Position numbers and translations under genes: made by a program. Under the pieces are notes generated by a model. The model did no database searches and was not told where the DNA came from. It saw nothing but the letters and a program-made list of their open reading frames with translations. A DNA stretch of 63,994 nucleotides, counting the filler, from Blastocystis sp. subtype 4 (taxonomy: Eukaryota), in NCBI RefSeq assembly GCF_000743755.1. It is 20 parts of 20 records of this genome, joined end to end, with 100 filler letters (N's around TTAATTAATTAA, not from the genome) between each part and the next. Parts side by side here need not be neighbours in the genome. Positions count along the whole stretch, not along the records: positions 19,764 to 22,746 come from NW_014568940.1; 19 more parts are not named here. One strand, written 5' to 3'. Shown one piece after another: positions 294 through 58,258 of the stretch (within the stretch, counting starts at the first letter, position 1; the number at the start of each line of letters is the position of its first letter).

Positions 294-3204
294 TTAAACT
301 TTCACCTGTTTCGCAGAAACCTTCTTTGCTGTTGTCTTGCTCGACTTTGATGACTTCTTACCTTTCACGCCACCTACTACCTTTGCCTTCTTTCCAGTTC
401 TCATAAGGAAGAACACAACAATAGCAACAATCGCTATCACAATAACAACGCCAATAACCAACAATGGAACGGACATACAGAATCCGGAAGCCTTCTGCCA
501 TTCTCCATCAGTAACTCCCAATACACAGGATCGTTTCTGAGTACCCACATAACTGCCCTGAGTAGCACAATCATACTCAGCCACTTTACCAACATCAGTT
601 ACAGGGAACACACCTTCTGCAACACACTGACCCTTTCGCACTTGAATAAACACTGTTGTTCTCGTGGCTCCTGATTCATTCTCAGCATATACAGTGTACG
701 TTGTCAATTCCTGTACACTTGTGGGAACACCTGAGATTTCTCCAGTCTTCTCATTCAGACTCAATCCATCAGGAAGGAACACTCCAGTATCAATGTACCA
801 ACGATCAACAAGATTTCTTACCAAAGGAACTCTTGTAGTCACTTGTGTACCCATCACAAAGTTATAAAGAGATTGAGTGTAACGAGCATTAACTGGAGGC
901 TTCATAGTACATTTATCAGTCTTGACAGGTCCCAACACACCTCCAGAACACTCACGATATGAATATCCACTGTAACCCTCAGGACAAGAAGAAGGAGAGA
1001 TTTGACTTTCACCCACTGAAGGATAGTTGTCAATTGAAGGACACACAGCTCCTGAAGCCTTACAGTAGGCTGTATGAATAGAACCCAAAGTCGTTCCTGT
1101 AGTGCCAGTCACAGTAACCTCCCATCGATATCTACGGAATCCAGCTAGAGCCACAGGAACAGCAATCTGAGGCTTTGTTCGAGAAGTCACAGTCTGATCA
1201 ATAGCACTCAAAATTGTTACCGGTTCATTGGTAGTGTCATCAGGATTGTAGTTAGCAATGATATCAAAGCCCCAAGATGTGACTGTAGATCCTCCAACTA
1301 TGTTAAGTGAGTTCCATTTGCTTCCAACAAGATTCTCAACAGTCCATTCAATATAGGTTCCAATCGTGTTTGGAAGGAATCCAGTAGTGAAAGGATCAAG
1401 ATCCATGATTCCATCAAGAGTACCTGAAGTGGGAGTAGTAGATTCCAGTGAAGAATAAGAATCAACAACAGTAGAACAATCTTCAACTCCAAATACTCCA
1501 GTAGCATCAAACACAACAGGATCAGAAGAAGAACCACTCAAAGGACGATGAATCTCGAAACTGAATACATTACTGCCCTCTTGAATTCCAGCTGTTGCCA
1601 GAATCACATGGAACTTCGAGAACACACTAGCATCATGATCAGTGATCGATAGACTCAAAGAATCGAAATCATCTTCAAGATTGAATCGAGCAACCAGATT
1701 TCCATTCACATAGGCACCCACTCCTCCAGAATACTTCACTCGAACATTCAACACTTGGTAATCATTCAATCCACTCATTGTGAAACTCTTTCGGATATAT
1801 GTTGTGATTGAAGAAGTGGAAGGAATATCAACAGCCTTGTATGTGTTCCAAGTGGAATCATCGAAACTGACAGTATTCCAATCACTTGACACATCACTCT
1901 GTATCACCTTCCAATTCGTGTATTCAATCTGGAAAGGGAAATATGTTGAGAACACAGTTGATACATAGATCGGTTTCGTTCCACTATTCATTTCCATGAT
2001 ATCCAACTCCATCTCTCCCAAGTCAACAGTCAGAGTGTAACCAGCTCCTATACTCCAACCATCTCCATAGGTATCAGATCCTTGTAATGTATAAAGTCCA
2101 TCATTCAAACAGAAATCAACATAGTAATAAGCACTCGATACAGGGAATGAAGATACTGATTGAAGAACAGTTCCTGAGGTTCCTCTTCCCTGATACAGCT
2201 TCCATGAATTCTCAGCCGGAAAACTATCAGCTCTAAAACGAACAGTCATCAGACTCTTGCCATCTGTACAAATTGTAACTGAGAAAGAGATAGTGGCAGT
2301 CACATCTCCTCCACTTATCTTAGTAGCAGTGATGGTGTAGGTTTGAGTAGTACTCTCAGCAGTGGCAGTACCTGAGATCCAACCAGTGTAAGGATCCAAC
2401 ACAATACCAGCAGGAAGAGAAGGATTGATTCTGAAGTTCATGTAATAATCATTATTCTGAGGAATCACTTCAGACATCTCAACATACTTGAATACAGTGA
2501 CTGAAGAATCATAAGTGAAGTTAGGAATATCAGCCAACACATTATCAGCAAACAGATCCAGAGATTGAACATACCAATCACAAGAAGAAGAATCACCAGT
2601 AGCAAAGTTCTCAAACTTGAATTGATTGTAAGGAGTATTGTTAGAGAAATAGATTCTTCTCTTCTGAGCTATGGTAGAATAAGTAAGACCAGTGACTTCC
2701 TTCAGAAGTGTCCATTCATCTGTACCCAAGTTACGACCATACAATTTGAACTGTTTAGCCTGCTTACCACTATGTATTGCTGAATAATAGTTCTGAATTT
2801 GAACAGAACTGATCCATTCACGACGATTGTTTGATAGAGTCAAAGTCAGAGCATTCTCAGTACATGAATAGTAATAGATGTTGGTACTATAATACATATC
2901 AAATGGATTGACTGCAGCTCCATACATTCCAGTAGCTGAAGCTGTGAATTCCCAGATATGAGATTCTGATTGTTCTGATGCCATCAAACGAACAACTGCA
3001 TCGAAATAGGATGTGGTGTAACTGTCAGCAATAGCAACAATGGCAATAGCAATCGTGTTACTTCCAGATTGAAGGAATGTCACTGGACTTGTTACTGTTG
3101 AAGTCTGCATTTGTTTACCTGGAAGAGTCACAACATAGTACTTCAAATCAGTATATGAATTGTCAACAGTGGATGAAGTCGACAAATCTCCAATCACTCC
3201 ATTT
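294..3204 (-). CDS. Large type-I membrane surface protein (galactose-binding-like beta-sandwiches, putative Ig/He_PIG repeats, 4-Cys modules), 5'-truncated
   Basis: 967-aa intronless ORF with P-x-LP-x-G-(I/L)-x-L-(D/N)-xx-TG-x-ISG-x-P/A Ig motifs, Cys modules, a C-terminal hydrophobic helix (LLVIGVVIVIAIVAIVVFFLM) and a Lys-rich tail. TGTTTGTT on the minus strand at 269-276 follows the stop. Confidence 0.8.
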
Positions 3205-16769: not shown

Positions 16770-17747
16770 TTTCTATTATTTGTGAACCTCTTTGTTGTAA
16801 TTTCATCTACGAATTGGGTAGTATAACTGTAGTGAACAGTACGGATGCATATTTCTTTGTCTTACTCATCTTTCCCCATGTTTGCGACTCCATGAATACA
16901 GTTTCTTAAATGATCCTTAGAGATCATTCTCCTTATGGACATCGATAACCTTGTCATCTTTATCGGAAGTCAACAGAACCTATTGTCCTTGCTACCGTCT
17001 ATCACTATCACCAGGATAAGAATATGAAATTCCTATTATCGCCATAGAATTGAATAGTATACTAGTATATCGCATAAACTTGACTATGAACTGACTATTA
17101 TTCTTAGATGGTAAATGTAACTCCATTGTTCATTATTTCTTCGAAAATGGACTGAATTATGATATACTATCCTTATTTCATTAGTACAACTCTTGTGAGG
17201 ATATGGATCTTTCAGCATCTCAAAAGCCCTCTTTGAGATCTTCACAACTATGCTCTTGTCAAAAGGAACCGGTTGCTAGGCAGGAAAAGCCTTCTGGGAA
17301 GATGTATTGTGATGCAGGAATCTAGTCAGAGACTGAGGTATTCTTTTCACATGGCAACCATTTCATAAGTCAAATAGATGATAATGGAATACCAATATTC
17401 ATCTTCACGTAGTATCCATTTGTTCGTAGTGCTCATATTCTCCCACATAGTTAAGTAATATTATCTCTATTTTTGTAGAAACAAAAAGTCGTTGATAACC
17501 CTTCACTAGATGTCCACTATTACACATGCATATACTTTCTTATAATATTTTCGAAACTATTAACATGTATAACAAATAAAAGACCGTACAGTTAAGACCG
17601 CCACAAAAGACGTGTATAGTGATGCGTACTATTGATTATCAAAAAGTCTTCAATACTATTATCTATTAGAATTCGTAAAAAGTGTTTGTGGAAGAACACC
17701 TTTAGTTTTCGTTAGAATAATGAGACTTATCTCTCTTTTGTTCGTGG

Positions 17748-19663
17748 TTGGTAAAAGTTATCTGGTCACCATTACTAGTAGTTTGCTTCGTTACTGTTAC
17801 ATCTTGTGATAACAACAAAGTATTTGCAAAAATCATAAAGAAGACTCTACGATATGCCAGTGAGGAGAAGGTTAGTATTCTCATTGGTGATATAGTCGAT
17901 TATGAGGCTTCTACGTTTTCAGACTTCGACGAGCGTGAATTGGATGTGTGTCTCTCACCTTCACCAAACAGTCAGTATACTCTGAAGATGAGGGATACTC
18001 TTAGTGATTCATGGACAGATGGTGCTTGGATAGAGATTCGTGGTATCAATGGGAATGTTGTTCTAAAAGCACTCATGACTGAGAAATCTAACGAGCTAAT
18101 TCCGTTCTCCTTGTACTCGCCTATCAACAAGAATGAGTCATGGAAATACACTAATATGGTGTCAGATGATTGGAAGTCTCTATCGTTCCCTGAAACTTCA
18201 TGGATCGATGTCACACTTGGTGGAACCACGACTTCAACAGGTACTCAATACTTCCGTAAATCCTTTGATGGATTGGCAGATATGGCTGCTATTGATGTTG
18301 AGTTCAATTATGCAATGGGTATTGTAGCTTACATCAATGGAGTGGAAATTTATAGAGATAATATGAATGCTGGAGAAGTAACTGTGGATACTTTAGCCTC
18401 TGGTAATTATACCACAGCAGAATATCGTGGTATTGTCCGCCCATCAACAGTTGCAGAATCTCAGTCGGTTCTTGCTGTAGAGATTCACTTTGTGGAAGCA
18501 AATCACAGTGAGACGATTGTATTCGATGCATTCCTATCCTTTTTAGCAGGAATAAGTAGTGACAACAAATGTTTTGTTGTTCCTTTCGACGTAACAGCTA
18601 CAGGTGAAGGTTTCACAACTCCTCTTGCTCCTTTTGTATGGACTCGTAACACAGGTTCTGTGTCTTCAGTTCTTCCTGCTTCTCTCACCTTCCAGATCCA
18701 AGGTAATGTAATGCCTATTGTCAATTCATTCCGAATCTGGCCATATTCCAATGTTCTTGAATCACCATCTTCTTTCTCAATTGAGGCGCAGAATGGATCA
18801 GAATGGATCACAGCAATGACTACCATTCAGGAGACATATACAAATAATGTTTGGAAACAGTTCGATTTACGTGGTGCTTCCTTACAATACTCTACTTATC
18901 GTATCACAGTCACAGCCTCAAACTCGGTGTCAGCTACTATTGTGGAGTTGCAATCTATGGTATGTAACTTCGCTTCAGTTTCATCTTTCTCCTATCCTGA
19001 ATCATCCTATTCCTTCTTGAGTAAATATGATATTGTGTCTCTTCGACCAAATTCGTATGGTTTGCAGAACTGTACTTCCTCTCCTGCTCTTCCTAGTGGA
19101 TTAACACTTGCTTCTAATGGTTGTGCAATCACAGGATCTGCTACTGTAGCGAGTCCGGAGACTGTCTATCAGATAACAGGATATTCTGGGCAGAATCCTG
19201 TAACTGCTTCCTTAACTCTGACTTTCACAGAATGTACTGGAACGTTGCTTCGAATTGTTCATACGACATCGTATCTGGCTACGAATGAAGGATTCCGTAT
19301 TCGGAATACCGAGAATGATGACATTCTATTGGATGTTCCTGTTGGATCCGTTCAGGAGTCAACAACCTGGGAAGAGAGTCTGTGTGTTACAGCAGATCGA
19401 TATGATGTGGCTCTGTATGGTTCGACTGCATCGTGGTATTCATCTTCATTTCTCTATATATACGGTCGCTTGCCTGATGCTCAGGAAGAATTGTTACTAA
19501 AAGCTCGATATGATGCTGTACAGAAGAATGATCATGAGTTCTATTTCAGACGTCCTGCTATTGCGGATTCAGAACAATGGTATTATAAGATGGGTGAAGT
19601 GCCTACCAATTGGTTTGGTGATGATACATCAGGTTGGTCTCAGGCTGCTAGAGGATCATTCCC
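17748..19663 (+). CDS. Surface protein of the same family as 294-3204, 3'-truncated
   Basis: Shares YFRKSF, G(I/V)xAY(I/V)NG, LAVEIH, PALPSGL Ig motif and DSWTDG motifs with the 967-aa ORF. True start uncertain. Confidence 0.75.
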
Positions 19664-20115
19664 NNNNNNNNNNNNNNNNNNNNNNNNNNNNNNNNNNNNN
19701 NNNNNNNTTAATTAATTAANNNNNNNNNNNNNNNNNNNNNNNNNNNNNNNNNNNNNNNNNNNNTCTTCAAAACACAACTTTCTTTCATTCTTTCATATTT
19801 CATTCATATTCACATTTCTATTCGAATCATACTATCCAAACAACCTCACTCACACTTCTCTCACTCTAATACACTTCTATTCATAACAAACATCATACTA
19901 ATACTATCTCTATTACAATCATTACATTCAATTCCAATTCTGACAACACTACAGGTTTCATCTCTCACACATTCATCCAATCTTCAATTTCTATACTTCA
20001 TTCCAACATTCACAAACCTAAATCCATACATAACACCTAACTTTAAACATAATTACATTCAATTTGTACCCTACCTTATAATCTACTTTTTCACCTTATA
20101 CCCTACTTATTATCA

Positions 20116-22148
20116 TTGTGTTTAACCGGATCTATGATCCAAATCCAATCTTATACTCATTCTTTTTCTTATCATATTATCCTTATTCATCATATGTCAC
20201 ACAATTCTTCTTATGATTATGTTCAACCAGTCAATATGTTGAAAGAGCAAGATCCTGCTATTATCAAGACTATGATTTCTTCTCATATGGAACATCATAA
20301 TCAAACAGTATCATCACCGACAAATGCCCAACAACATGGAATCGACTCAAGACTATTAACGCAACAAAGACGAAAGAAATCATCCAAACAACCTAAACAA
20401 TCATCGAATCAACGTTACAACCCCACAAAAGGACCAAGACAAACTCACAAAGCAAAGATGAATCCAAGTACTCAACAACATATACAACTCTATGGCATTA
20501 GTCAATCAAGCTGTTGCCAAAGTTCCCCATATTGTTTCGGATCGTCTTGTTGTTACCAAACTCCAGAAACTAGATCGACTCACAGTATTCAAACTTATAA
20601 CGTTATGAATGAACAATTCATCACTCAACTTCGAACAATCGGAACCAAAGTGGGAATGAGAATACAAGTTATGAATACAGTTCAACAACGGCCTATTCGT
20701 TCAGGAAAACGTATTCATCATTCCTCATGGAACATTGCTACTCTCAATATCAATTCCCTCAACTCCAACATTATCATGCTTTCCTTTTATTTTTAACTCT
20801 TTACCCTTCTTTCTTGAGTTCTTGATTCGTACTCTTGGTTTTAGTCTTGAAACCAGCTCTTTGAGTCCTTGTTCTTGGTCTATGGTTTTTGACTAATACT
20901 TCTTGGTCCTTGACTCTTGGTTTTGGTCTCTTAGTCAAAACCATTCTCAAACCAACTCTACTTGAGAATCCAACATCCAACTTCATATGGGTTCAATTTA
21001 AGTATATCAACAATCGTATAGTCGTATGCAATGTCTATGTCCCAGCTCATAATGCTCCAGGGAGAAAGCCGGTATTGGAGAAGCTGGCGAAGAAGATACT
21101 CTATCGTATCAAACATCATCCCCAAGACTCACTCATCATACTTGGTGACTTTAACATGAAACCAGATCAATTGAAGAAATGGATAGGACAATGGAAGATT
21201 CAATGTACTATTCTACCTATTCCAGAGGGTCAATGCACTTATCGAAAAGGCAGTACTGTTATTGACTACATTCTCTGTTATCAAGGTTCCAATCTCACTT
21301 GCAGTAATGCCACCATATATGAATGGAGAGATGAACCACTCTCCGACCATAATGCATTGTGTGCTACTCTCATGATTAACAATATACAGAGTGAGAACAA
21401 CAAGTTCATTGTGAATCGATACAAAGTGTTAGAGGAATTGTCTGTATGGGATGATAATGTCGAGGAATGGCCCAAAAGAGATACTCATGGGGAATGTTTC
21501 ATAAACCATTCTCAAGACACAAATGATTCATCAATGCAAGTAGAATCAGAATCAGAATCAGAATCAGAATCAAAATCAAAATCAGAATCAGAATTAAGAT
21601 TCAAAGCAACAGAATTCATTCAAGACTTGAAAGAAATGTTGAAGAAGAAGCGGATGGTGAAGGAACCATGGAAATCGAAATCAAAGAAGAAGAGGATTGG
21701 ATGTATTCCAAAGGAACTAGTACAACTACTTGAGAAGTGTCGACGCATACGTAGAGAGAAGGCTCAAGGAATAATGAAGAGTACTGAAGAACAAGTGAAG
21801 GATAAAGAGACTCTAATGGAAGGAAAACGAGCATTGAGACAGATTATGAAAGAGAAAGAACTACGAGATCTACAATATGGACTTGATAAATATTCGCATC
21901 ACAATAGTCAATTACTATGGAAGTGGATTCGAGGTCATACCTCAGAGAAACGGGTTGAAAAGGTCATGGTCATCCGTAATCCCACTACTGGTAAGATTGA
22001 AGATAATGAAGAAAGAGTAGCAGAATTATGGGCAAATCACTATCGAGAACTAGCAAGAGATGTGACTGGTCATAGCAAGGACCCAAACTACTGGTTAAAC
22101 AAGGGAAGACTAAACAGTGAGATAGATAAGATAATTAATGAGGCCTGA
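20116..22148 (+). mobile_element. Degenerate non-LTR (LINE-like) retrotransposon: APE/EEP endonuclease and linker, truncated before the RT
   Basis: Intronless. Endonuclease motifs NIATLNINSL, VCNVYVP, IILGDFN, TY...VIDYIL and SDHNAL, then a basic helical linker with LWKWI and WANHYREL as in LINE ORF2. Frame is broken near 20770-20950 and the ORF ends at the hairpin element. Confidence 0.8.
21543..21594 (+). repeat. (GAATCA)n microsatellite encoding Glu-Ser repeats
   Basis: GAATCA/AAATCA tandem run inside the LINE ORF. Confidence 0.9.
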
Positions 22149-22746
22149 GGCCGTGCGTGCTCTGCGGAGGGCGCGGCGCAAGCGCCGCACCTCCTTGAGC
22201 TGACGCTCAAAAAAGGAGTGCAAAATGGTTAAGTAAACAGTCAAAATGGTGTGAACAAAGTAAACATACTTTCTGACACTAAAAGATGGTGCAGTAACAC
22301 GGTGACGAACAAAACGCAAAATGTGGGACCAATAATATGGATTATTTTTTGATGTCCATATAACTGAATAGAAAACGGAATAAAAGGAGTGACTAGTGTA
22401 GTAGTGTAGTAGTGTAGTAGCCTCCAAAATAATTACTACAAAGTAATTCTACCAAAAATCTTTGCAAAATTGAAAAACAGCTACTACACCTACTACACCT
22501 ACTACACCTTCATAAATAAGTCACTAAAACCCTTATAAATAAAAGAATATCCCCATAAATGAGCCAGTTTATGAGGGTTTAAGTGTAGTAGCCTACTTCT
22601 TTGTAAGCTACTACACTACCTACTACACCCTACTACACCAAATCATAGATTTTCATTCACTATTTTGTGAAGCAAACAAAAGTGAATAAACATAATCATG
22701 ATTATTATCAAGAAGATTTTATTATATCATCAATAATGAGATTTTG
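22136..22746 (+). mobile_element. Unclassified element end, copy 1: 17-nt terminus, GC hairpin, conserved core, GTGTAGTA(G)/CTACTACAC iteron arrays
   Basis: TAATGAGGCCTGAGGCC at 22136-22152, hairpin 22166-22194, blocks homologous to 51750-51990 and to the reverse complement of 58025-58258. Runs into the contig end. Confidence 0.7.
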
Positions 22747-32092: not shown

Positions 32093-35027
32093 TCATAATC
32101 TTATATCCTTCCTCACCCTCATCACAGCTGGTAGCAACAGTTGCACCATCAGCTGTCTCAGGCAGACTATCAGTAGCATCACAATCACGAGGAGCACGAA
32201 CAATAGCAATCATGATCATAACTGAATCAGAACCAGCAGCATTAGTCACGGTAACACTGTAAGCAATCTGCTCAGTGATAACAGTAGGAATACCAGAGAT
32301 CACTCCAGTAGTCTCAGAGATCATTAGACCCATTGGCAGATAAGGGCTCACAGATACAGTGTATTCCAGACCCACAATATCAAATGTCACAGGTTCAATC
32401 ATCTCATCGACCACAAACGCATAAACTGTCTGATTCACTGAGATGTGAGGGGCCATAACAACACAGTTGGAAATAATTTCTCCCCATACTCCATTCGTAC
32501 ACAGACGACTGACTGATCCTTCATACAAAGGATCACAAGGAATCACAGCAGTTTCACCATCAAGTGTATTAGGGAAAGCACCTTCAGCCAGACAAGTACC
32601 AGGAGCCAATTCAATCATAAGAGTAAATGTCACAGAATCAGAACCACCTTCATTTGTTACAAGCAGAGTGTAATTAGTCATAGGAGTCACAACAGAAGGA
32701 ATACCTGAAATCACACCTGAAGCAACATCCAAGCTCAATCCCATAGGAAGCTCTGGTTCAATTGCAACAGTATACTCAACTCCAGCAATCACAGGCTCAA
32801 TAGGTTCAATCTCTTCATTCAAGGTGAAAATGAATTCAGTCTCATTCAAGAAGATCATAGGAGCAATCACTGAACAATGATTCACAGGCTCACCCAATAC
32901 ACCATTGAAACAAACTCGATCAATCGATCCTTCGTAGTATTCAGGACAAGCAATCGAAGATATCTGTCCATGAGCAACGGCAGGATAATCACCATCAGCT
33001 TCACAATCCAATGGAATAAAGGTGACAGTAATTAGGAAGATAACATGATCAGAACCAGCAGCATTAGTCACAGTCAGAGTATAAGGGGTATCTTCGGTTA
33101 CAGCAGAAGGAGTACCTGAAATCACTCCAGTCTCAGAATCAAGATTCAATCCAGCAGGAAGAGAAGGAGACACACTTACAATATACTCAGCAGCTTCAAT
33201 CATAGGCACAATAGGAGTAATCGCCTCATTGATAAGGAAGAGATACTCAGTCTGATTCAGGAAGATCATAGGCTCCAAAAGAGTACAGTTGTTCACAGGC
33301 TCACCAAAGACTCCATCAGTACACAAACGATCAATCGAGCCCTCATAATATGAAGGGCAAGCAATCGATGCAACTTCACCATTTCCAGTCTGAGGATACT
33401 CACCTTCAGCCAGACAAGTACCAGGAGCCAATTCAATCATAAGAGTGAATGTCACAGAATCAGAACCACCTTCATTTGTTACAAGCAGAGTGTAATTAGT
33501 AAGAGAAGTTACAACAGAAGGAATACCTGAAATCACACCAGTCTCAGAATCAAGATTCAATCCAGTAGGAAGAGAAGGAGTGATGGATACACCGTATTCA
33601 GCTCCAGCTATCACAGGCTCAATAGGTTCAATCTCTTCATTAACGACAAAGATATAATCAGTCTCATTCAAGAAGATCATAGGAGAAAGCACCGAGCAGT
33701 GGTTTACAGGCTCACCCAATACACCATTCGTACACAAACGATCAATCGATCCTTCATAATATTCAGGACAAGCAATCGAAGATGTCTGTCCATGAGCAAC
33801 GGCAGGATAATCACCATCAGCCTCACAGCCCACAACCACCATAACAACTTCCAGAGTAAATGTGACTTCAGTAGAACCGGCAACATTAGTCACAGTCAGA
33901 GTGTAAGTAGTCATAAGAGATACAGCAGAAGGAGTACCAGAAATCACACCAGTCTCAGAATCAAGATTCAATCCAGTAGGAAGAGAAGGAGTGATGGATA
34001 CAGTGTAAGGTAATGATTGAATAGAAGGAGTAATAGGACTAATCATCTCATTTAAAATCACAGCATAACTTGTGGGCTCCAACACCACAACTGGAAGAGA
34101 GGCCATACAGTGATTCACAGGCTCACCCAATACACCATTGAAACAAACTCGATCAATCGATCCTTCGTAGTATTCAGGACAAGCAATCGAAGATATCTGT
34201 CCATGAGTAACGGCAGGATAATCACCATCAGCTTCACAATCCAATGCAATCACAGTAATAGTCAACACAGTAGAATCAAAACCAGCAGAGTTCGATACAG
34301 TCAGAGTGTAAGTAGTCATAGGAGATACAGCAGAAGGAATACCTGAAATCACACCAGTCTCAGAATCAACACTCAATCCAGTAGGAAGAGAAGGAGTGAT
34401 GGATACAGTGTATTCAGCTCCAGCTATCACAGGCTCAATAGGTTCAATCTCTTCATTCAATGTGAAAATGAATTCAGTTCCATTCAAGAAGATCATAGGA
34501 GAAAACACCGAACAACGATTCACAGGCTCACCCAATACACCATTCGTACACAAACGATCAATCGATCCTTCGTAGTATTCAGGACAAGCAATCGAAGATA
34601 TCTGTCCATGAGCAACGGCAGGATAATCACCATCAGCCTCACAATTCAGCGCAATCACAGTAATATGCAGAGAAATATGATCAGAGCCAGCAGCATTAGT
34701 CACAGTCAGAGTGTAAGTGGTAGCTTCAGTTACAACAGAAGGAGTACCAGAAATCACACCAGTCTCAGAATCAACACTCAATCCAGTAGGAAGAGAAGGA
34801 GTGATGGATACACTGTATTCAGCTCCAGCTATCACAGGCTCAATAGGAGTAATCGCTTGGTCCATAATAAAGGAGAACTGAGTCTCTTGCAACATAATGA
34901 TAGGTTCTAAGAGCGTACAGTTGTTCATAGGCTCACCCAACACTCCATTTGTACAAAGTCTCTCAATCGTTCCTTCATAGTATTCAGGACAACCAATCGA
35001 AGAGATTTCACCATTATCAACGGCAGG
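32093..35027 (-). CDS. Surface protein fragment of alternating putative-Ig (He_PIG) and 4-Cys HormR-like modules
   Basis: Open across the whole contig. About 7 units of ~138 aa: ITPSLPTGLxxDSETGVISGxP followed by CEADGDYP..ACPEYYEGSIDRLCTNGVLGEPVNHC. Confidence 0.85.
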
Positions 35028-39175: not shown

Positions 39176-39443
39176 AAAGAAAGTGATTAATCCATTAACA
39201 AATCGTGAGATTAATGTTGGTGATAATCCATTTATGATGGCTATACGTACAGGATATATTCTATATGATGAAGACAATAACAAACTTGTATTAATACCAA
39301 CATTGAAAGAACTCATTGAGAAAGAAGAAAGACATTATGTAGACCCATTCTGTTGTGAAGATTCAGATGATTCTGATTTTGAGTATGATTGTGATGAATT
39401 TGATTATGATGAAGATGGATATGGACTAAGATGTTGTCCATAG
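39176..39443 (+). CDS. Intronless orphan ORF fragment with NPxTxRxI motif and acidic tail (virus-like)
   Basis: KKVINPLTNREINVG resembles the NPxTgRxI core of the 2-cysteine adaptor domain of large DNA viruses. 5'-truncated. Confidence 0.35.
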
Positions 39444-42341
39444 TTTTGAATCATTGTATAGAGTAGTTTATCATCAATGATAAATGGATTTGGTATATGA
39501 GTAGAGTGTGTTGTTTGATAGTTTGTTAATAGGTGACTTATCATTTCTGAAATGTATCGTTGAATCATATCATTAGGAAATCTCATACTGTTTATTAATG
39601 TCAAAATCTTTCAGTATTCTTGAACCTTCAACATATCATATTTCGTTGCTAGAAAACAAACAACAAAGATTTTGTGCTTCATTGTTAGTCATGATTTGAC
39701 TTGAAATGGGTTGGATATGTGTTCCAAATTATGATCAAAATGTTGACCTTTTCGAGCTTCATTATTGGCCTTTTTGTCTGCATTTTCGTGGCGTTTTTGT
39801 CTGGTAGGGTTAAGCGTGTATAGCTACCCAGGGTTGGAGGCCCATGTTTGCGACGGTTTGTGTGGATAATATACGTCAATTACCTACTACTTAGAACCAA
39901 TCTGTTGATTCTGATCTCATTTTCTTCATATATCTAATAAATACCACTATTTTCGCATATGCAAAAGAGAGAAATGTGAATGAAGCTGTGCGGATAAAAT
40001 GAAGGAATGATGAAAAGTACATTCGTTCAGAATATGATCTTGATATTGTCTTTCTTCATTCTATTCATGTTCAAGTGGTTTGAATGATTCTATGATGAAT
40101 AGCCACATCTTATGGACTTTGTGAAGAAGAGTTCGATTTATTGTTTGGAAAGCAATTACATGTGTATCATGTGACAGAGTATTGTAAATGACACGAAATA
40201 TGAAAGTGGATAGACTTTGAAGTAGAGTCGTCTCTTTAATGAAAGTCTTGTTTATGAAAAGCGTTGGTCTGATCACAGTATTGGGTTGATTGAAGAATAA
40301 GATCTAGGATTCCTTCAGATGGATTCATGGATGAAGAATCTCATCATAATATCGCTTGTAATCCCTTCTCTAGTCTTGTTCGAACTCCTCGTCGAATCCT
40401 TTGGTCGTTTGTTGTGGATCCTCCATTCTTTCAGAATGTGGTAGGGTTCCTGTTCATGTAGGATCTAGACAACTCGCCGCCATCGTTATGAACCCAAATC
40501 CTTTGGTATGGAATATATTCCTTTGTCAACAAAGAAGGAAGGTTTCCTGTTTGTGGGAAATGGAAAGTATTACAGCAGGTTGAGTGCAGTTGGGATCATC
40601 AGAACGTGAATCTCATACAACTATGACAATGTTGAGTGTAGAAGAAGAGGAAGAGTGGGGGAGAAGTTGTGACTCTGGAGACATTCGAGTGGGGTTTGAG
40701 ACTGAAGCAATGTTGATAGAAGTAATGATTGTGGCTGAACAGAACGATTATCGGTTGATGCCAATTCGGGAGAATGGGAAGGCAAGGTATATTCTGTTTG
40801 GTTGACGTGTGGATGTGGATGAGGTATTGAGTCATATTGAACAGAAGGAGAACATGAATCTATAGTGGTCAAGAATTATGTGTGGAGTATGTGTATTCGT
40901 GGTAATGTTGATCCTCTGAGGATTGTTGGCTCTTTGAAGTGGGACCTTGAGTGAGTAAGTGAGTGATAGAATATGCCTCTTTTGTTATGGGTGTATGTTG
41001 TGGAGTATTGTGTCCAATGATAACAACGCTGGGAATGCGAGGATATTTGTATGGAATACGTGATGTGAATGTGCTTCGAATGGGATTTTATTTGATTTTC
41101 CCTCGGGCTCTGGCTGTATCTTTGGATGTACTATTCAAATTGATAAGAATGTATCGAATTAGCTTACAGATGAAACTGAAGAAAGAGGAATGTGTTGTTT
41201 GTAAAGAGAGTGGTGAAAGGAATGTGATGTTGGATACACAAACTAGTCCAATAGTCAGTTAGGTTAGAAAGGACTCGAATGCTCTGATAAAAGGGTTCCA
41301 AAGAACAGACTCTAAGTGAAGTCTATACAGTCTTGTCATATTGTAGTAAACAATACCTATACATGAACTGACATGAAATGTTCTTAGAAACAGTCAATCA
41401 TTGTCTGTTGAGATGTGAGTACAATAGAACAAGGAAAGATAAGACGACTGTGAACTATCAAGATTGGATTCCAAATAAGCAACAATTACTCAACAGTCTG
41501 GTTGATACCGCCTGCAAAGGTGCAACGATTCCACATATTCATTGATCCATAATTACTATACTCATTTGATTACTAAACAGTTCATTTGCCTTCTATGAGA
41601 GGCTTATGCACAATCTTATTGGTTCCAAGTCGACAGCCAATAGGCAACGATATTATGTTGATGAATAACCATTCCACTCAATTCTTCGAAGCTTCTATTC
41701 TTGTTTGTGAAATGAATGAGAATTGAGTTGAATAAGGAGAGGCCTATATCCTGTATTTAGGAGAATATGATTAGTCACATGTCGTTTATTTCCAAGAGTT
41801 GTTTTGAATCGATTGTTGCTTGAATTCATAACCAGTCAAACCAAATTGATGTAAATGACACATTATTAATGAGAGTTGATTCCACAACATTCTCTGATTC
41901 TAAGTGAATAGTTCTGGTGATGAAATATTACATGCATCAGAAACAGAGTTCATTATCAATAGAATCTAGTTATTTCTCAGGATATCTAATTCAGTGGATA
42001 ATTCTAAATAGCTTGTTCTTTCCGTCCTTTCCTATTCCTCTTTTGGAAATGTCAATTGCTGTTGCATAACAAGCAATCTATTTCGCTATTTGCCTTTGAT
42101 TCTATNNNNNNNNNNNNNNNNNNNNNNNNNNNNNNNNNNNNNNNNNNNNTTAATTAATTAANNNNNNNNNNNNNNNNNNNNNNNNNNNNNNNNNNNNNNN
42201 NNNNNATACTGTTGAACTGTAAGGGTTATTCGTGTTACTATGGGTTGTTTGTTGAGAGTAAGAGTGGATTTGAGGTATTTGGTATTGGAACATCTCATTG
42301 TGATATCATTCAATCCTTTGTTACTACAAACATTCATACAT

Positions 42342-43390
42342 CTAGTTTACATATTCTCCATCCCAAACCATATTACCATCAGCTGGAGCAGGGAAGAAGA
42401 ATGAAGGATCAGCAAATCTGTAACCCTTATCCAAGGCACGAATATCCTTCATATTCTCTTCGGTTAGTGAGAATGAGAAATCAAATACATTGAAGTTCTC
42501 AAGGATACGTTCCTTATGAACTGATTTAGGAATACAAACTGATTTAGGAATACAAATAGTACCACGCTGAATAGCCCAACGAATCATAATCTGAGCGGGT
42601 GTCTTGTGATGTTCTTCAGCAATACGAGCAATCACAGGATCCTTCATAGGTGAAGCATACTTATGAGGGAATCCACGATCAGCTCCACCTAATGGGAAGT
42701 AGGCCATGAAATACATTCCATTCTTATCCAACAGATCCTTCACTTCCCACTGTTGGAGATAAGGATGTAACTCAACTTGATTGACAGCAGGCTTAACAGT
42801 ACATCGTTCCAGAAGAAGTTGGACCTTCTTTCCCGAATAATTAGACACTCCAAGGGCTCTCAGAATGCCCTTGTTGTACAACTCTTCCAGTTTCCTCCAA
42901 GTTGGCATAAGTAGATCAATGTTGAATCCAAGTTTCTCACTGCCTTCAGGAGGGAATACGTCACAGTCAAAGAAGTAACCCTCTTGGCGTTTCTTTTCTT
43001 GCTCAGGAGGCAAGTTGAAGAAAGCAGCTTGATGGATCAGGAAAAGATCAATATAAGTAGTCTGCAGATCTTCAAGAGATTGGTTGACAGCTTTCTCTAC
43101 GTTCTCTGGTTTCCAATCGGAGACCCAAAGCTTTGAGGTAATGAACAGTTCTTCTCTCTTCACAATTCCCTCATCAATACACTTCTTGATAGCAGCACCG
43201 ACTTCTTTGTGATTTCTGTAAGCACAAGCAGTATCAATGAGACGATATCCAGCCTTGATTGCAGTTTCAACAGCTTCTGCACATGAATTTCCACCAGAGA
43301 GGAAAGTTCTAGGATCAAGAATTGCTTCAATCCTTACCCAAGTCCCAAAAGGGGCATCTTTACACCATTGTTCAGAATAACACTGTTCAT
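42342..43390 (-). CDS. Aldo-keto reductase
   Basis: LNNGVKMPLLGLGT, GYRLIDTA, LFITSKLW, LGVSNY, NQVELHPY and IPKS. One intron. Confidence 0.95.
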
Positions 43391-45347: not shown

Positions 45348-45439
45348 CACTTGTAACAGAAAGAATGACAAAGTTATAAAGAGGGAAACGTAGAAACCAC
45401 ACGTTTTTGATTGATTTGTTGATACAAACATTCACAAAC

Positions 45440-45634
45440 TAGTTTACATATTCTCCATCCCAAATTATGTTTTGATCTGCTGTTTTGGGAAAGAGGAAAG
45501 AAAGGTTAGCGAATCTGTAACCCTTATCCAATGCCCGAATATCCTTCATATTCTCTTCAGTTAGTGAGAAATCAAATACATTGAAGTTCTCAAGGATACG
45601 TTCCTTATGAACTGATTTAGGAATACAAATAGTA
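45440..45634 (-). CDS. Second aldo-keto reductase paralog, C-terminal fragment
   Basis: Near-identical to 42342-42560 ([22 protein letters not shown]...WDGEYVN*). Confidence 0.9.
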
Positions 45635-46174: not shown

Positions 46175-47513
46175 TTACAAGTAGTGATTTAACAGTACCT
46201 CGAATTTCTCTTGCTTTGCTGATTGAGGAGTGGGCTTTCCATTCTTCAAGATGTACTCTTCGCATTCCTCAAAGGTAGCCTCTCCCTTCTCAATACGAGC
46301 ACCAAGACCAGTCGTGTAAGATTCATATCTCTTGTCAACTAGATCCTGGTAGATGCCATCATTCATTATCTTCTCAACGATCAACAAAGCTCGAGCAAAA
46401 GTATCCATGGCTCCAATATGGGCAACAAACCGATCTTCAAGATCAGTCGACTCTCTTCTTACACGGGCATCAAAATTGAGACCACCACTGTGGAGACCAC
46501 CTGCACGAATGATATGATACATCACAATGACTGCTTTCTTAACATCCATAGGGAACTGATCCGTATCCCAACCAAGAAGAGTATCTCCGGTGTTCGCATC
46601 GACAGATCCAAGCATCTGTTCATTGCATGCGAAGATGATGTCATGCTCATAGTCATGACCTGCAAGAGTTGTGTGATTCGGCTCAATATTTAACTTGAAG
46701 TCTTTGTCAAGTCCATACTTGCGGAGGAATCCAATCACAGTCTGAGCATCGTAGTCGTATTGATGTTTCGTAGGTTCACGAGGTTTCGGCTCGATCAGCA
46801 GCTGGAACGTAGCTCCGATCTTTTTCTTGTAGTCAACAGCCATACGCATAAACTGGCCCATATGATCCAGTTCCTTGCCAGGAAGACTGTTCAAAACACT
46901 TTGATAACCCTCACGACCTCCCCAGAATACATAATTCTCACCTCCAAGTTTCTTGGTGATTTCCATGGCCTTCTTTACCTGAGCAGCAGCCAGTGCAAAC
47001 ACATGAGCATCGGGATTTGTCGAAGCACCATTCATGAAAACACGATCTCCGAACATGTTTGCTGTACCCCAAAGCAGCTTAACACCCGTTTCTTTCTGCT
47101 TCTGAAGCATATAATCGGAGATAATATCGAGTCTTTGATTCGTTATCTCCAAAGTCTCTCCTTCCTCGACAATGTCACGATCGTGGAAACAATAATACTC
47201 CACTCCCAGCTTAGTGAAGAACTCAAAAGCTGCATCACACTTTCTCTTAGCTTCAGTAATAGGATCTGAACCGTCACACCAAGGTCGTGGAAGTGTAGGA
47301 CCTCCGAACTGATCCGTTCCTTGATAGCAGAAAGTATGCCAGTAGCAGACAGCAAATCGCAGGTGATCTTTCATTTTCTAGAAGTGAGAGTTGTAAATAC
47401 AGCCCTACCTTGCCCAATACGACTTGATCAGCATTGTACCACTTAAACGCAAGGTCGTTCATACTTGCGCTTCCTTCATATTGAATTTTGCCAACACCAG
47501 GAAAATATTCCAT
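46175..47513 (-). CDS. xylA: Xylose isomerase (class II)
   Basis: HLRFAVCYWHT, CFHDRD, VFWGGREG, IEPKPREP, NIEPNH, GWDTDQF and GGLNFD. A 31-nt intron at 47378-47408. Confidence 0.97.
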
Positions 47514-49806: not shown

Positions 49807-52015
49807 TATTGAGTATCAGAAAACTCAAAGAGAATACAAATTGATTGATTATCGAATAATCTAGTCTTCTATCTCCTCTCTGTAGTTATTCAATTCTGGA
49901 TAATGAGTTCCAAATGGAATAGACAATAGAATAGAGATCATAACCAAATCAACAATAGTGAATTCCTTTGATTGAACAACATAGATGAAACTATTGGAGT
50001 GAAAGGATGTTAGAATACTTGTATTCATTCTATTGAAATGATAACTATCACTATAGAGTGTCTCCTCATTGATGATTGTGTTTGTCATTCTTAGTATTCA
50101 ATCTACATTCTAATTGATATCCATTATCAACAATCTGTATTCAGATCAACAGAAATGAGATGATTATTGAGAAGAAAGATGAGTCATATGATTAGAAGAT
50201 CAAAACGGAGAAATGGTCAACTCAACAGTGTGACTACTTTGATTATCAATATCACTGAGCATACAAGAGTTTCATTCACAATTCTGTCACATTTCCTACT
50301 CCTTAAGCATTAGCTCTATCATCATATCATCATTACTATCATCATCACAAATGATATTGATTAACAAATATACTCGTACTATCTTCAAATACTATCTCAT
50401 TATCATTCTACTCATTCTTATATCATTTCATCTTCTATTCATCTTCATTCTATTCAATCATCATATTCAATCATTCTCATATCATTACTATCTCAAATTG
50501 TGATTCTGAATGATACCTATTCTCATCAAATCATCATCATTCTCATATTCTATCTCAATCGATTCTATATCATTCTATCTATTCAATCAATATCAATTCA
50601 CAATCTCAAACACTCTTCTTCAGACAAACAATCAATTCATATATTAAATTCACTTCTATTTCCTTATTCTATTTCACTCTCTTTCTCTTTCAAATCACCT
50701 CTATTTCATTCATATGTTATCATATTCACTTCTATTATTCATATTCTTTCCAATCATCTATCAACTATCCTATTTCTTTAAATAGAGAGATTCTCAAGCA
50801 CAACTCGTACTATCAATCTCAATTGAGATAATCATCATGAAATCAATTTGATGAGAGAGTGTAAATAATAAATGTCACTATTAAGAATGATGTCTGACTC
50901 AAACAACAAGAGAAGTCCCATTCTTTTAACTGGTATTCATTCAAACCACATTAATAATGATAAGAGGGTTTGAGTTTTGGAGGATAACGATGCATGCTAC
51001 GTAAAAGAAGGCCCTATAGAAGCCGTAAAACACAATTCCGAGCAAGAATTGTAACTTGGGATGGTAATATATGAGATGGCCCACAAAAGATAATATGGCA
51101 GACAATTTCCAACTAAACAAGGAAGAAGTTAACCATTTCAAGCCAATAGTAGGAAACAATAAGGACAAAAAGTATGTCGTTAATTATCAACAAAGGTCAG
51201 CACAGCTTGAAGTGTCAACCACCTGCGTAAATTGCCAGGACAATTTTGCTCAATTGTAGATTGAGTAAGAACTAGAATTTAGTTGTTAAAGTAGTAGAAT
51301 GATATATCCTAATAATATAATTCAAAACAATAAATCAAAAATGATACAGTATTGTTAATCGAGTATGGAAAGCACTATTCTAATAACATATCAGGTCCAA
51401 TTAACGTTGATGGAACTACTGTTCACGATGATTAAGAAACATGCACAAAGAGTGCCCATTACCATTGATGGAATTATGTATATGTTGGCAATCAACAGTA
51501 TATACTACTTATACTAGAAGCAGTATTCTGTGAACATGGAATCACCATATTGAAGGATCCAGAACCTGTTATTGAAGACAAAACCATTCATTCTTATTCT
51601 GAGTTCAATAAATGTATTTCTACTTTGTTTGTGTTACTAAATGAGCATTCTCATACTCTCTTCCATAGATACTCAAAATGATCTGCTAGATGTTTTGTAA
51701 GGGTATTATTCATTATGATAAGCAGAACACCTAAACACCAAGCATGCACTGCGGAGGGTGTAGGGCAAGCGCCTCACCTCCTTGTGCTGACGCAATAATT
51801 GTATGCTAAATAGTAAAAGAAAATGGTCAAATGGTATATACAAAAGTAAACAAAACTATCTGACACTAAAGATGGTACATAATCAAGGTTATGAACACCA
51901 CCAAATGTGTGACCGAAAATATGGATTAATTTACTGTTCATAGAAATGGATAGAAACATGGAAGATGGTTGGAGTAACAGATGACGGGAAGATGGTTGGA
52001 GTAACAGATGACGGA

Positions 52016-52108
52016 TGGATTCATAATACTCTTTCAAAATGGTGAAATGGAAAGGTACAAACGGGTCGGTTTTCCATTTCACCATTTTGAAAGAGTATTA
52101 TGAATCCA
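52016..52108. repeat. Perfect 38-bp inverted repeat with 17-nt spacer
   Basis: TGGATTCATAATACTCTTTCAAAATGGTGAAATGGAAA (52016-52053) and its exact reverse complement at 52071-52108. Confidence 0.97.
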
Positions 52109-52311
52109 CCCGTCACCCGTCACTTCGTCACTTTTTAACCTCATAATCAAGTCAAAACATGGATTATTGTCAAGGAAAGGTGACCGGATGTATTTGTTGA
52201 TTTTCCATTTCCCCATACTGATCCATTTTGCCTTTACATAGTAGAAACATGTTTCCTTTTACTTTTACAAAGTAGCAAATAGTGATTTGCCTTTTATTAC
52301 ATAGTAATAAC

Positions 52312-52785
52312 ATGAGCATCCTCTACTTAAATCAGGATGGAAAGATACGAGCAGTTGATACAGCTGCTTCAGGAATCGTATACAAGAATGCAGATCAGAT
52401 TATTGTTAAGAGTAATGGGATTGTCAACACATACACATACACATCATTTGATAATGAAATCAATCTTAATCCTGGCAAATACATCATTCATGGTACAATC
52501 AAAGCCATTAACACAGATCTATGCTTTCTAGATCATTTCAANAACATTGAGGAAGTGTTTCAACAACCCTATCTCATCCAAACACTAATCCATCTATCAG
52601 ATCCTACTGATCTCATTGATGTTGATACAACAATCTTGCTTGATACAGCTAATCCATTGATCAAGTTCAGTTTCTGTAGATACATAGAGGTGGATGAAGC
52701 ATGTAAGATGGTTACAAATACGAACTACAATGGATTGAGCAATGTATGTATTGATATGATAGTTGAAAGTGTTTTTGTAGCTTAA
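52312..52785 (+). CDS. Intronless orphan ORF inside the element (157 aa, beta-rich appearance)
   Basis: ATG 52312 to TAA 52785. The next ATG at 52792 (MEKVKAWFT) runs into the linker. Confidence 0.55.
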   Translation: MSILYLNQDGKIRAVDTAASGIVYKNADQIIVKSNGIVNTYTYTSFDNEINLNPGKYIIHGTIKAINTDLCFLDHFXNIEEVFQQPYLIQTLIHLSDPTDLIDVDTTILLDTANPLIKFSFCRYIEVDEACKMVTNTNYNGLSNVCIDMIVESVFVA

Positions 52786-56802: not shown

Positions 56803-58024
56803 CGCTATAACTGATGTTGTGTATTCATTTGAATGGGTGTTCTTGTTATGATAGATTTTGATAATGTTGTTCACATCTTCTTTCATTGTTTGTTCAAACA
56901 GGAATGAAATCAATGTACCATTCTTACTCTCAACGCCTTTCAAGTACTCCTTCCATTTCATTCTCATTTCATTCCATATTCATCCATATCATTCATTCTT
57001 CTATATACACAGATCTCATTATTTAAAAATAAACATTTGATATTGAATAGAATCAAGAATCAGATTTCATCGGCTTCTACTGATACTCACCTATGATTAT
57101 TATTCAATTCACACTAACAGAATGACTTGTTTCTTTGACTCATTCTCTTGAACACTCACTTTATATCATCATCAATCATCCATTCCCTTATGAGTTTCAA
57201 ATCATTATATCACTTCATATCATTAGTCTTTCTTCTTTCATATAGTCATCAGCAATACAAACAGAAGAATCACAACAACAATATAGATGAGACTAGAGCA
57301 ATTGAAGAGAGAACAATCTTCTCACTTCATTTCTGACATCAATGATGATTGATGATAGTTCTAGTTGATGAATTGAACATGATCAGAATAAAGAGATTCT
57401 GACTCCATAGTGAAGATAACTCCTTATTCATTGAATGGATGAACAATTGAGAATCCTATCGTTGAACAATGATATTGTTATAATATGAATAGAGAATGAT
57501 ATGATTGTAGTAGTATTATGGTACATTGATGAATTCCATTGATTCCCATAATCATATTCAGTTAATTGTGTTCTGTTTCATTGTTATCATATTGCAATGC
57601 ATACTGATAAATGAATGATGACGATATGAATGAATATGGAATGAATCGAAGAATGAGATGGAGAGATATGAATCTTATTCATTATGAGTTTGATAGTATT
57701 GCGAAATATCCTATTTGTTGCTCGAATAATGAAGAAGGAGAGCTTAGTCGACATGGTGATATTCGGGGCAACGAACAGTCACAATTACAGATTCTCACTT
57801 TGAATGAAATAAATAGTAGGTGTAGCTATATTTCAATACACAGATCTGAATGATGGCATCAGAGGAATCGGACACCAACTCGTTAATAATCCTTATATTA
57901 TCTCTTTGTAGCATGCAATAATATATATAATGTAATCCGTCACTCAGCCAATGGGCTCTAAAACACCAATCAAATCATTCATTTATGACTGATACAAATC
58001 GCGGTATTTACTACATTATTAACT

Positions 58025-58258
58025 GCCTAACTTCCGTGTTTCCACCCAGTTTTTAATCATAATTTGCATGAATTTGGTCATGATTGTTGCGGTTGTTAGT
58101 CACCTTGTTTTTTTGTCCATCTTTTGTGTTTATCACTCAGCCGTCTATGCACAAAATTCGTGCATACTTTATTCATACCAAATGCGGTGTGAGGGAGGTC
58201 GGAGGCACTGCGCGCCTCCGACCTCCCTCCAGAATCCGATTGGCCTCAGGCCTCATTA
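58025..58258 (-). mobile_element. Unclassified element end, copy 3 (reverse orientation)
   Basis: GGCCTCAGGCCTCATTA at 58242-58258 is the exact reverse complement of 22136-22152. Perfect 16-bp hairpin at 58191-58229. Minus-strand blocks ACACAAAAGATGG, AACAAGGTGACTAACAA, GACCAA and GAAACACGGAAG match copies 1 and 2. Confidence 0.7.

Follow-up and report, generated by a model that had tools for sequence, protein, structure and literature searches.

A LINE-type open reading frame in the genome of Blastocystis sp. subtype 4 breaks off abruptly at a sequence that recurs on other contigs, which raises the question of what kind of element ends there. The initial annotation had proposed that three diverged copies of a conserved non-coding sequence of ~250 bp represent the end of a new family of mobile elements or endogenous viruses. 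We analysed the window (the whole stretch of 63,994 nt, in which short contigs of 1-4 kb are chained by 19 N-spacers, each copy lying on a different contig) together with the metagenome loci L005, L010, L037 and L116, contigs of six runs and protein searches. The runs that best matched the DNA were rodent gut runs. The window also contains long intronless ORFs with repeated Ig-like surface-protein units (294-3204, 17724-19663, 32093-35027 and 58937-61840; two are tandem arrays), a gene at 46175-47377 that we take to be bacterial-type and xylose isomerase-like, and likely a horizontal acquisition, and a contig whose start is repeated at its own end (42317-42561 and 45415-45634, 85%).

Homology among the three copies exceeded chance both in BLASTN and in local alignments compared with shuffled sequences. 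Copies 1 and 2 were 75% identical over 223 bp (BLASTN, E 5e-30), and copy 3, which BLASTN did not pick up, aligned locally with z scores of 11.0 against copy 1 and 8.6 against copy 2. With the terminal 17-mer removed, the score of copies 1 and 3 was reached in 0 of 1000 shuffles, and none of 1000 shuffles scored as high as copy 3 on the core alone. A profile search found no fourth copy in the window, and the contig at 39176-42105, considered as a candidate, was ruled out by profile search and local alignment. That the sequence belongs to a multi-copy family was confirmed by metagenome loci: in a scan of 51 of 64 parts, 4 of the 120 loci listed were copies and 116 were chance matches, and among 193 loci compared the element matched L005, L010, L037 and L116 only. 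Of these, L116 and L037 are the same sites as copies 1 and 3, and L005 adds a further site. The copies fell into two subfamilies, one of copy 1, L005 and copy 2 (73-91% identical to each other) and one of copy 3 and L010 (80%), with 50-58% of aligned columns identical between the two.

Relatives beyond these loci were sought widely. Scans of IMG/VR by DNA pattern and by protein returned no relative, a GTDB scan gave two matches, both at chance level, and phage and plasmid records gave no match or just 30-33 nt at E 0.05. None of the papers listed in literature searches described the terminus.

Element features in the window, with positions, strand and basis of assignment (Table 1).
Feature	Position	Strand	Basis
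LINE-type ORF (APE endonuclease domain) cut by copy 1	20865..22148	+	stop codon inside element
Copy 1, element end: doublet, hairpins, A-rich core	22140..22374	+	alignment; edge from contigs and L005
Terminal doublet GAGGCC-T-GAGGCC, first G = edge	22140..22152	+	identical in copy 3, L005, L010, L037, L116
GC-rich subterminal hairpin, copy 1	22166..22194	.	either strand folds, z -2.8/-2.9 for 22130-22230
Second small hairpin, counterpart in copy 2	22195..22210	.	sequence
Iteron block with ten 9-mers CTACTACAC that form groups, direct and inverted, about AT-rich spacers	22394..22638	.	sequence
Separate viral end fragment	39416..39891	-	candidate terminus AGTAGTAGG at 39891 and first 57 codons of 99-aa ORF
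Frameshifted relative of 99-aa ORF	51318..51696	+	DNA match 51296-51448 to 39434-39589; tblastn
Copy 2, variant doublet, embedded in viral DNA	51725..51975	+	BLASTN, local alignment
Repeat block after copy 2: 27-bp direct repeat x2, 54-bp inverted repeat, three CGTCAC units	51960..52134	.	sequence
157-aa TNF-like jelly-roll protein	52312..52785	+	structure model and matches; 340 bp inside copy 2
Element extension common to copy 3 and L005, absent in copies 1 and 2	57950..58035	-	score 57, 0/1000 shuffles
Copy 3 of element end	58020..58254	-	local alignment
16-bp perfect hairpin, copy 3	58191..58229	.	z -6.4 as DNA

The position of the edge was then defined by comparing flanks. The initial annotation had started the element at 22136, including the letters TAAT, and the data place the edge at G22140 (G58254 in copy 3). 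TAAT is host flank, because the L005 flank reads ...ATGTGAT directly before the edge and contigs merge exactly at 22140. In runs X2 and X8, the contig with the LINE flank stopped at 22169 (22140+29); as contigs were built from 31-letter words, we infer that different flanks merge at 22140. In run X1, three contigs had loose ends before 22140 with an agreement of 0.57, close to the value calculated by hand for unrelated AT-rich flanks. Merging at 22140 is seen in contigs from three studies, and the base preceding the edge varies in X1, X2 and X8. The three fully read flanks (TAAT, TAAT and TGAT) all share T-R-A-T, with the caveat that two of them were noticed through that match and that the final T in L005 was forced by the search pattern. 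The flanks were unrelated, as had been claimed, and the outer side of copy 2 is viral DNA, not host.

The 17-mer described for copies 1 and 3 is indeed identical in both, and its 14-nt core had two matches in the window at ≤2 mismatches, versus 0.08 expected. Copy 2 does not carry the 17-mer; its doublet reads GAACACC-TAAACACC at 51725-51739, with both halves changed alike. The GC-rich hairpin begins 13 nt after the doublet as reported, 26 nt from the element edge, but the hairpin of copy 3 differs in sequence from those of copies 1 and 2, and as DNA the fold of copy 2 reached a z of only -0.9, compared with the values for copies 1 and 3 in Table 1. The sequence blocks that had been called conserved showed no extra constraint, as the positions at which copies 1 and 2 agree were no poorer in differences between copy 3 and L010 (Fisher p 0.39-0.53).

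Copy 1 ends a LINE ORF, as the initial annotation had noted. This ORF has 427 codons and an APE endonuclease match (PF14529, E 7e-6, just below the curated cut-off), and a domain scan gave no RT match. The LINE-type element with APE occupies 19764-22139 in a genome annotated with two RT domains only, and depth in run X4 was very high over most of it. One X1 contig follows the LINE to 22139 and continues with 56 different letters, and may represent the uninterrupted LINE. In run X4, which we guess to be RNA, one contig spans the LINE and copy 1 at a depth of 728, with variant copies at 15-18. The L005 copy lies inside an LRR-like gene, as read by eye from the translation. Since copies interrupt the LINE ORF and the LRR-like gene, the sequence is an inserted, multi-copy element end. 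The sharp shared edge, the unrelated flanks, the two interrupted coding sequences and the further copies together support the proposal of a cis-acting end of a multi-copy mobile element.

The repeat extends past the ~250 bp originally described. Contig depth, which is not a copy number, rose several-fold from 22140 to ~22660 in three of four runs, giving a repeated unit of ~520 bp. About 235 bp are common to all copies, and beyond this the interiors are mosaic. The iteron block of copy 1 also occurs elsewhere, with its own loose ends at 22394 (X8) and 22638 (X1 and X2); it is repeated no less than the terminus and may form a mobile or recombining module in its own right. The block appears origin-like, and its layout presumably resembles that of P4/D5-type primase-helicase origins. 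L005 carries a mirror-image iteron block further in, built of CTACTCC units (z 5.5), and copy 1, L005 and copy 2 each have their own kind of unit. Just inside copy 2, the 54-bp inverted repeat (52000-52124) has 93% complementarity and a 17-nt loop. L005 also shares ~80 bp more with copy 3, and not with its close relative copy 1: against copy 1, the score of this extension was reached in 570 of 1000 shuffles.

At copy 3, a likely host start codon (58258) lies 3 bp from the edge, and host-like sequence resumes ~570 bp inside. L010 1-2387 and L037 form a glycosyltransferase-like host gene pair, 74-96% identical far from the element and 97-100% near it, a mosaic pattern that points to gene conversion between paralogues; NodZ/FUT8 matches of the adjacent gene are weak. 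Across the insertion, L010 and L037 were 97-100% identical in the flank (1300 bp) and in the initial 43 nt of the element, and beyond this point 71-81% identical, so that two 80%-identical element variants occupy one insertion point. In run X1, the flank next to the L010 variant is paralogous and shows 13 differences in 198 bp. This pattern could have arisen from one old insertion copied together with its flank, from later conversion, from a chimeric assembly or from repeated targeting. Contigs of three of four runs (the fourth gave none) showed neither an empty-site joint nor a rise in depth at copy 3. As far as copies 1 and L005 are assembled, they show no 5-6 bp target duplication; in copy 3, a CATAAT match 568 bp in is a candidate duplication at chance level (4 in the contig versus 1.7 expected). 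The terminus does not recur in inverted orientation in the 2.3 kb beyond copy 3 or within the 1-4 kb contigs. An exon considered at 57754-57905 was dropped as its frames are broken (3 synonymous and 6 non-synonymous differences, by eye, in 22 codons against L010).

Copy 2 has viral genes on both sides. On its outer side, the DNA is homologous to the 99-aa ORF up to ~30 bp from the edge, with tblastn E values down to 8e-18 over 51475-51696. Among the 75 listed members of the 99-aa ORF cluster (484 in total), 25 have a longest contig of 21-25 kb and none listed is longer, as expected for a virus genome assembled alone; contigs of this length would thus be virus-size. On its inner side lies the 157-aa protein, which has 10 relatives among cluster representatives and one cluster member from Blastocystis sp. 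BT1. A structure model of P0001, which is 97% identical to it, built on a 10-sequence alignment, reached a pLDDT of 81. In BFVD, ranks 1, 2 and 4 for this fold were MELD virus sp. (E 1.6e-8, 2.9e-7 and 2.0e-5; hosts not stated), with numerous phage fibre proteins ranking after them; in the PDB, the highest Z was only 9.3. Judging from the predicted fold, the protein is likely a MELD-virus fibre or vertex protein. An Atlas search of the 157-aa protein returned unnamed clusters only and a weak C1q lead, that of the 99-aa ORF returned nothing, Pfam and PHROGs gave no useful match for the viral ORFs, and a fold prediction from 3 sequences reached a pLDDT of 38. We saw no major capsid gene, and copies 1, 3 and L005 show no virion genes. 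The repeat could therefore be a passenger inserted into a virus, because the only copy beside viral genes is internal and has an altered doublet.

A near-identical piece of the 99-aa ORF is found at 39416-39586, ~300 bp inside a candidate AGTAGTAGG end of Polinton type, and this viral end fragment is not homologous to the 250-bp element end. The stretch at 39176-39891 looks like an end fragment of a ~22-kb virus in which the 99-aa ORF is cut after codon 57 and fused to an opposite-strand ORF; the collection protein P0062 has another junction joining the same two ORFs, and the ORF at 39177 has no longer homologue.

Considering which enzymes could move such an element, we turned to the InterPro domains of ST4-BT1 in Table S5 of PMC12129017, whose counts rest on gene annotation and can miss elements. 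The counts there are 19 for rve integrase, 4 for pPolB, 1 for the D5-type primase C-terminal domain, 2 for RT and 1 for Harbinger nuclease; tyrosine recombinase, Helitron helicase, CRESS Rep, SF3 ssDNA-virus helicase, Tc1, MULE and piggyBac all stand at 0 (PMC12129017). Its ST4-BT1 entries include no Cas12f1 row and no IS200/TnpB domain, and tyrosine-recombinase domains are present in subtype 3. Among the candidates raised initially, a Polinton-like or mid-size dsDNA virus thus gains support from the viral genes at copy 2 and this inventory; for Helitrons, other HUH elements and TnpB/Fanzor, the subtype-4 table contains no annotated enzyme.

On balance, we favour a viral reading, in which a Polinton-like MELD virus, or a short non-autonomous derivative of one, has the element end as its terminal (inverted) repeat. 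This assignment to class is made from context, namely the viral genes flanking copy 2 and the enzyme inventory. On contigs of 1-4 kb, no copy was seen joined to an integrase, polymerase or capsid gene, and no opposite end was seen. In such an element, the terminal doublet would be the binding site of an rve integrase, which would insert the end into host DNA with little regard to sequence and generate a target duplication of 5-6 bp; a protein-primed polymerase would start at the free end, and a D5-like primase-helicase would be loaded at the iteron block, which lies a few hundred bases further in. A short derivative would borrow the virus's enzymes, doublet and iteron sequences would differ between virus lineages, and in copy 2 one such element would sit inside the terminal region of a different virus.

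Comparison with known systems shows where this reading fits. Like Polintons/Mavericks, the element has a long terminal repeat with a tandem repeat at the very end, in a host genome with rve integrase and pPolB; unlike them, it has a 7-bp terminal repeat unit and an internal iteron block. The usual Polinton terminus is 5'-AG, and a strict Polinton was rejected because the edge here is 5'-GAG. Blastocystis MELD viruses, integrating mid-size linear dsDNA viruses with PolB and integrase, have been described in the same host genus (PMC8502044), and the best structural matches of the gene inside copy 2 are named MELD virus sp., a comparison that does not extend to termini. The EMALEs, endogenous mavirus-like virophages of Cafeteria, a related host group, are nested, TIR-bounded and inserted non-specifically in genes and repeats, their truncated copies keep TIRs, and the ~520-bp unit falls within their TIR range of 0.2-2.3 kb (PMC8547959); by contrast, we found no mavirus-like gene here, and one site holds two diverged variants.

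Several observations weigh against a viral end: its GAG start, while an unrelated textbook AGTAGTAGG end stands at 39891; the insertion point shared by two variants, which unspecific rve integration does not predict; the absence of a relative in IMG/VR; and the TNF-like fold predicted for the 157-aa protein, which is a common one that many phage proteins also match. We conclude that this is a previously unannotated element end, most likely of a virus kind already reported in Blastocystis. The initial claim of a new family therefore holds for the terminus and not for the virus kind, MELD viruses of Blastocystis being already in print (PMC8502044).

The single sharp end, the subterminal hairpin and the variable interiors could also mark the end or origin of an HUH element (Helitron-, Replitron-, IS200/IS605- or pCRESS-like), whose Rep protein would recognise the doublet and hairpin, cut one strand at the fixed edge and replicate variable lengths of downstream DNA with no target duplication. 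We regard this as unlikely. Helitrons end in 5'-TC and CTRR-3' and lie between A and T; here the plus strand begins GAG and the minus strand ends CCTC, neither strand offers CTRR or TCAA, and BT1 lists no Helitron helicase, no CRESS Rep and no IS200/TnpB domain in that table. The shared T-R-A-T of the flanks would suit an HUH target, except that varying bases precede the edge and that the search itself imposed the T in L005. The suggestion of IS200/IS605 with TAAT as target loses its basis because TAAT is not shared, and the fixed 4-5 nt target of these elements 5' of the left end is absent from flanks that read TAAT, TAAT and TGAT. Replitrons and pMV158-type origins have short direct repeats and a hairpin near the end, with one sharp and one variable end, and the two 7-bp tandem repeats beside the hairpin and three further tandem repeats recall the pMV158 origin (PMC10288648); in contrast to Replitrons, subtype 4 has no known Rep gene, and a second end with a direct repeat was not seen. 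Rep-like EVEs occur in other Blastocystis subtypes, but PMC9615429 reports no CRESS/Rep-like EVE in two subtype-4 assemblies.

A short (0.5-0.7 kb), non-viral, non-autonomous cut-and-paste transposon of Harbinger, MULE or Ginger type, mobilised by a DDE transposase in trans and surviving in LINEs, multigene families and old viral DNA, is rather unlikely as well. Every site does lie in repeated or dispensable DNA, host-like sequence is back within ~570 bp of the edge in copy 3, and the table has 19 rve domains against 4 pPolB and one Harbinger nuclease. However, the 2.3 kb after copy 3 hold no inverted terminus, iteron blocks are not expected in such elements, and Ginger, IS481EU and IS3EU were rejected on their termini (TGTNR in Ginger, TGT or TA in the others), which the GAG edge does not resemble.

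It is distinctly doubtful, though worth stating, that the repeat is a sub-viral end-plus-origin cassette, a satellite of MELD viruses that would swap doublet and iterons with the integrase and D5 helicase of each lineage and insert into viruses and, repeatedly, at the same base 3 bp upstream of the start of the glycosyltransferase-like family. If so, insertion could alter which glycosyltransferase-like paralogue is expressed.

Still less probable is a recombination site at which a tyrosine-recombinase element (Ngaro-, Crypton- or PLV-type) would use the doublet to integrate, with MELD viruses among its targets. The internal position and variant doublet of copy 2 and the two variants at one site would agree with this, and Ngaro elements nest in Cafeteria virophages (PMC8547959), but BT1 has no such domain in the table, though subtype 3 has some, and the flanks have no core sequence in common. 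A structured RNA ending at the edge (a housekeeping RNA, SINE head or omega-RNA scaffold) is very improbable: the first 75 nt of copies 1 and 3 fold better than shuffles and 250 nt is a plausible scaffold length, but Rfam gave no match at gathering score, a tRNA search of the element found none, the A-rich core folded no better than shuffles (z -1.0 to +0.35), consensus folds had many broken pairs and favoured neither strand, there was no selection signal, and for TnpB/Fanzor omega-RNA in particular, which the initial annotation had offered as an alternative, the scanned neighbouring ORFs had no RuvC match and Table S5 of PMC12129017 has no Cas12f1/TnpB row.

Blastocystis is the commonest eukaryote of the gut in humans, and its integrating DNA viruses have hardly been described. 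The precise terminus provides a probe with which insertions can be counted, full-length or active copies found and nearly clonal subtype 4 strains compared. Should an ordinary TIR be found at the far end, the result would be a useful annotation with no new mechanism; a non-AG end with lineage-specific doublets and iterons would widen what is known of replication and integration in the Polinton class.
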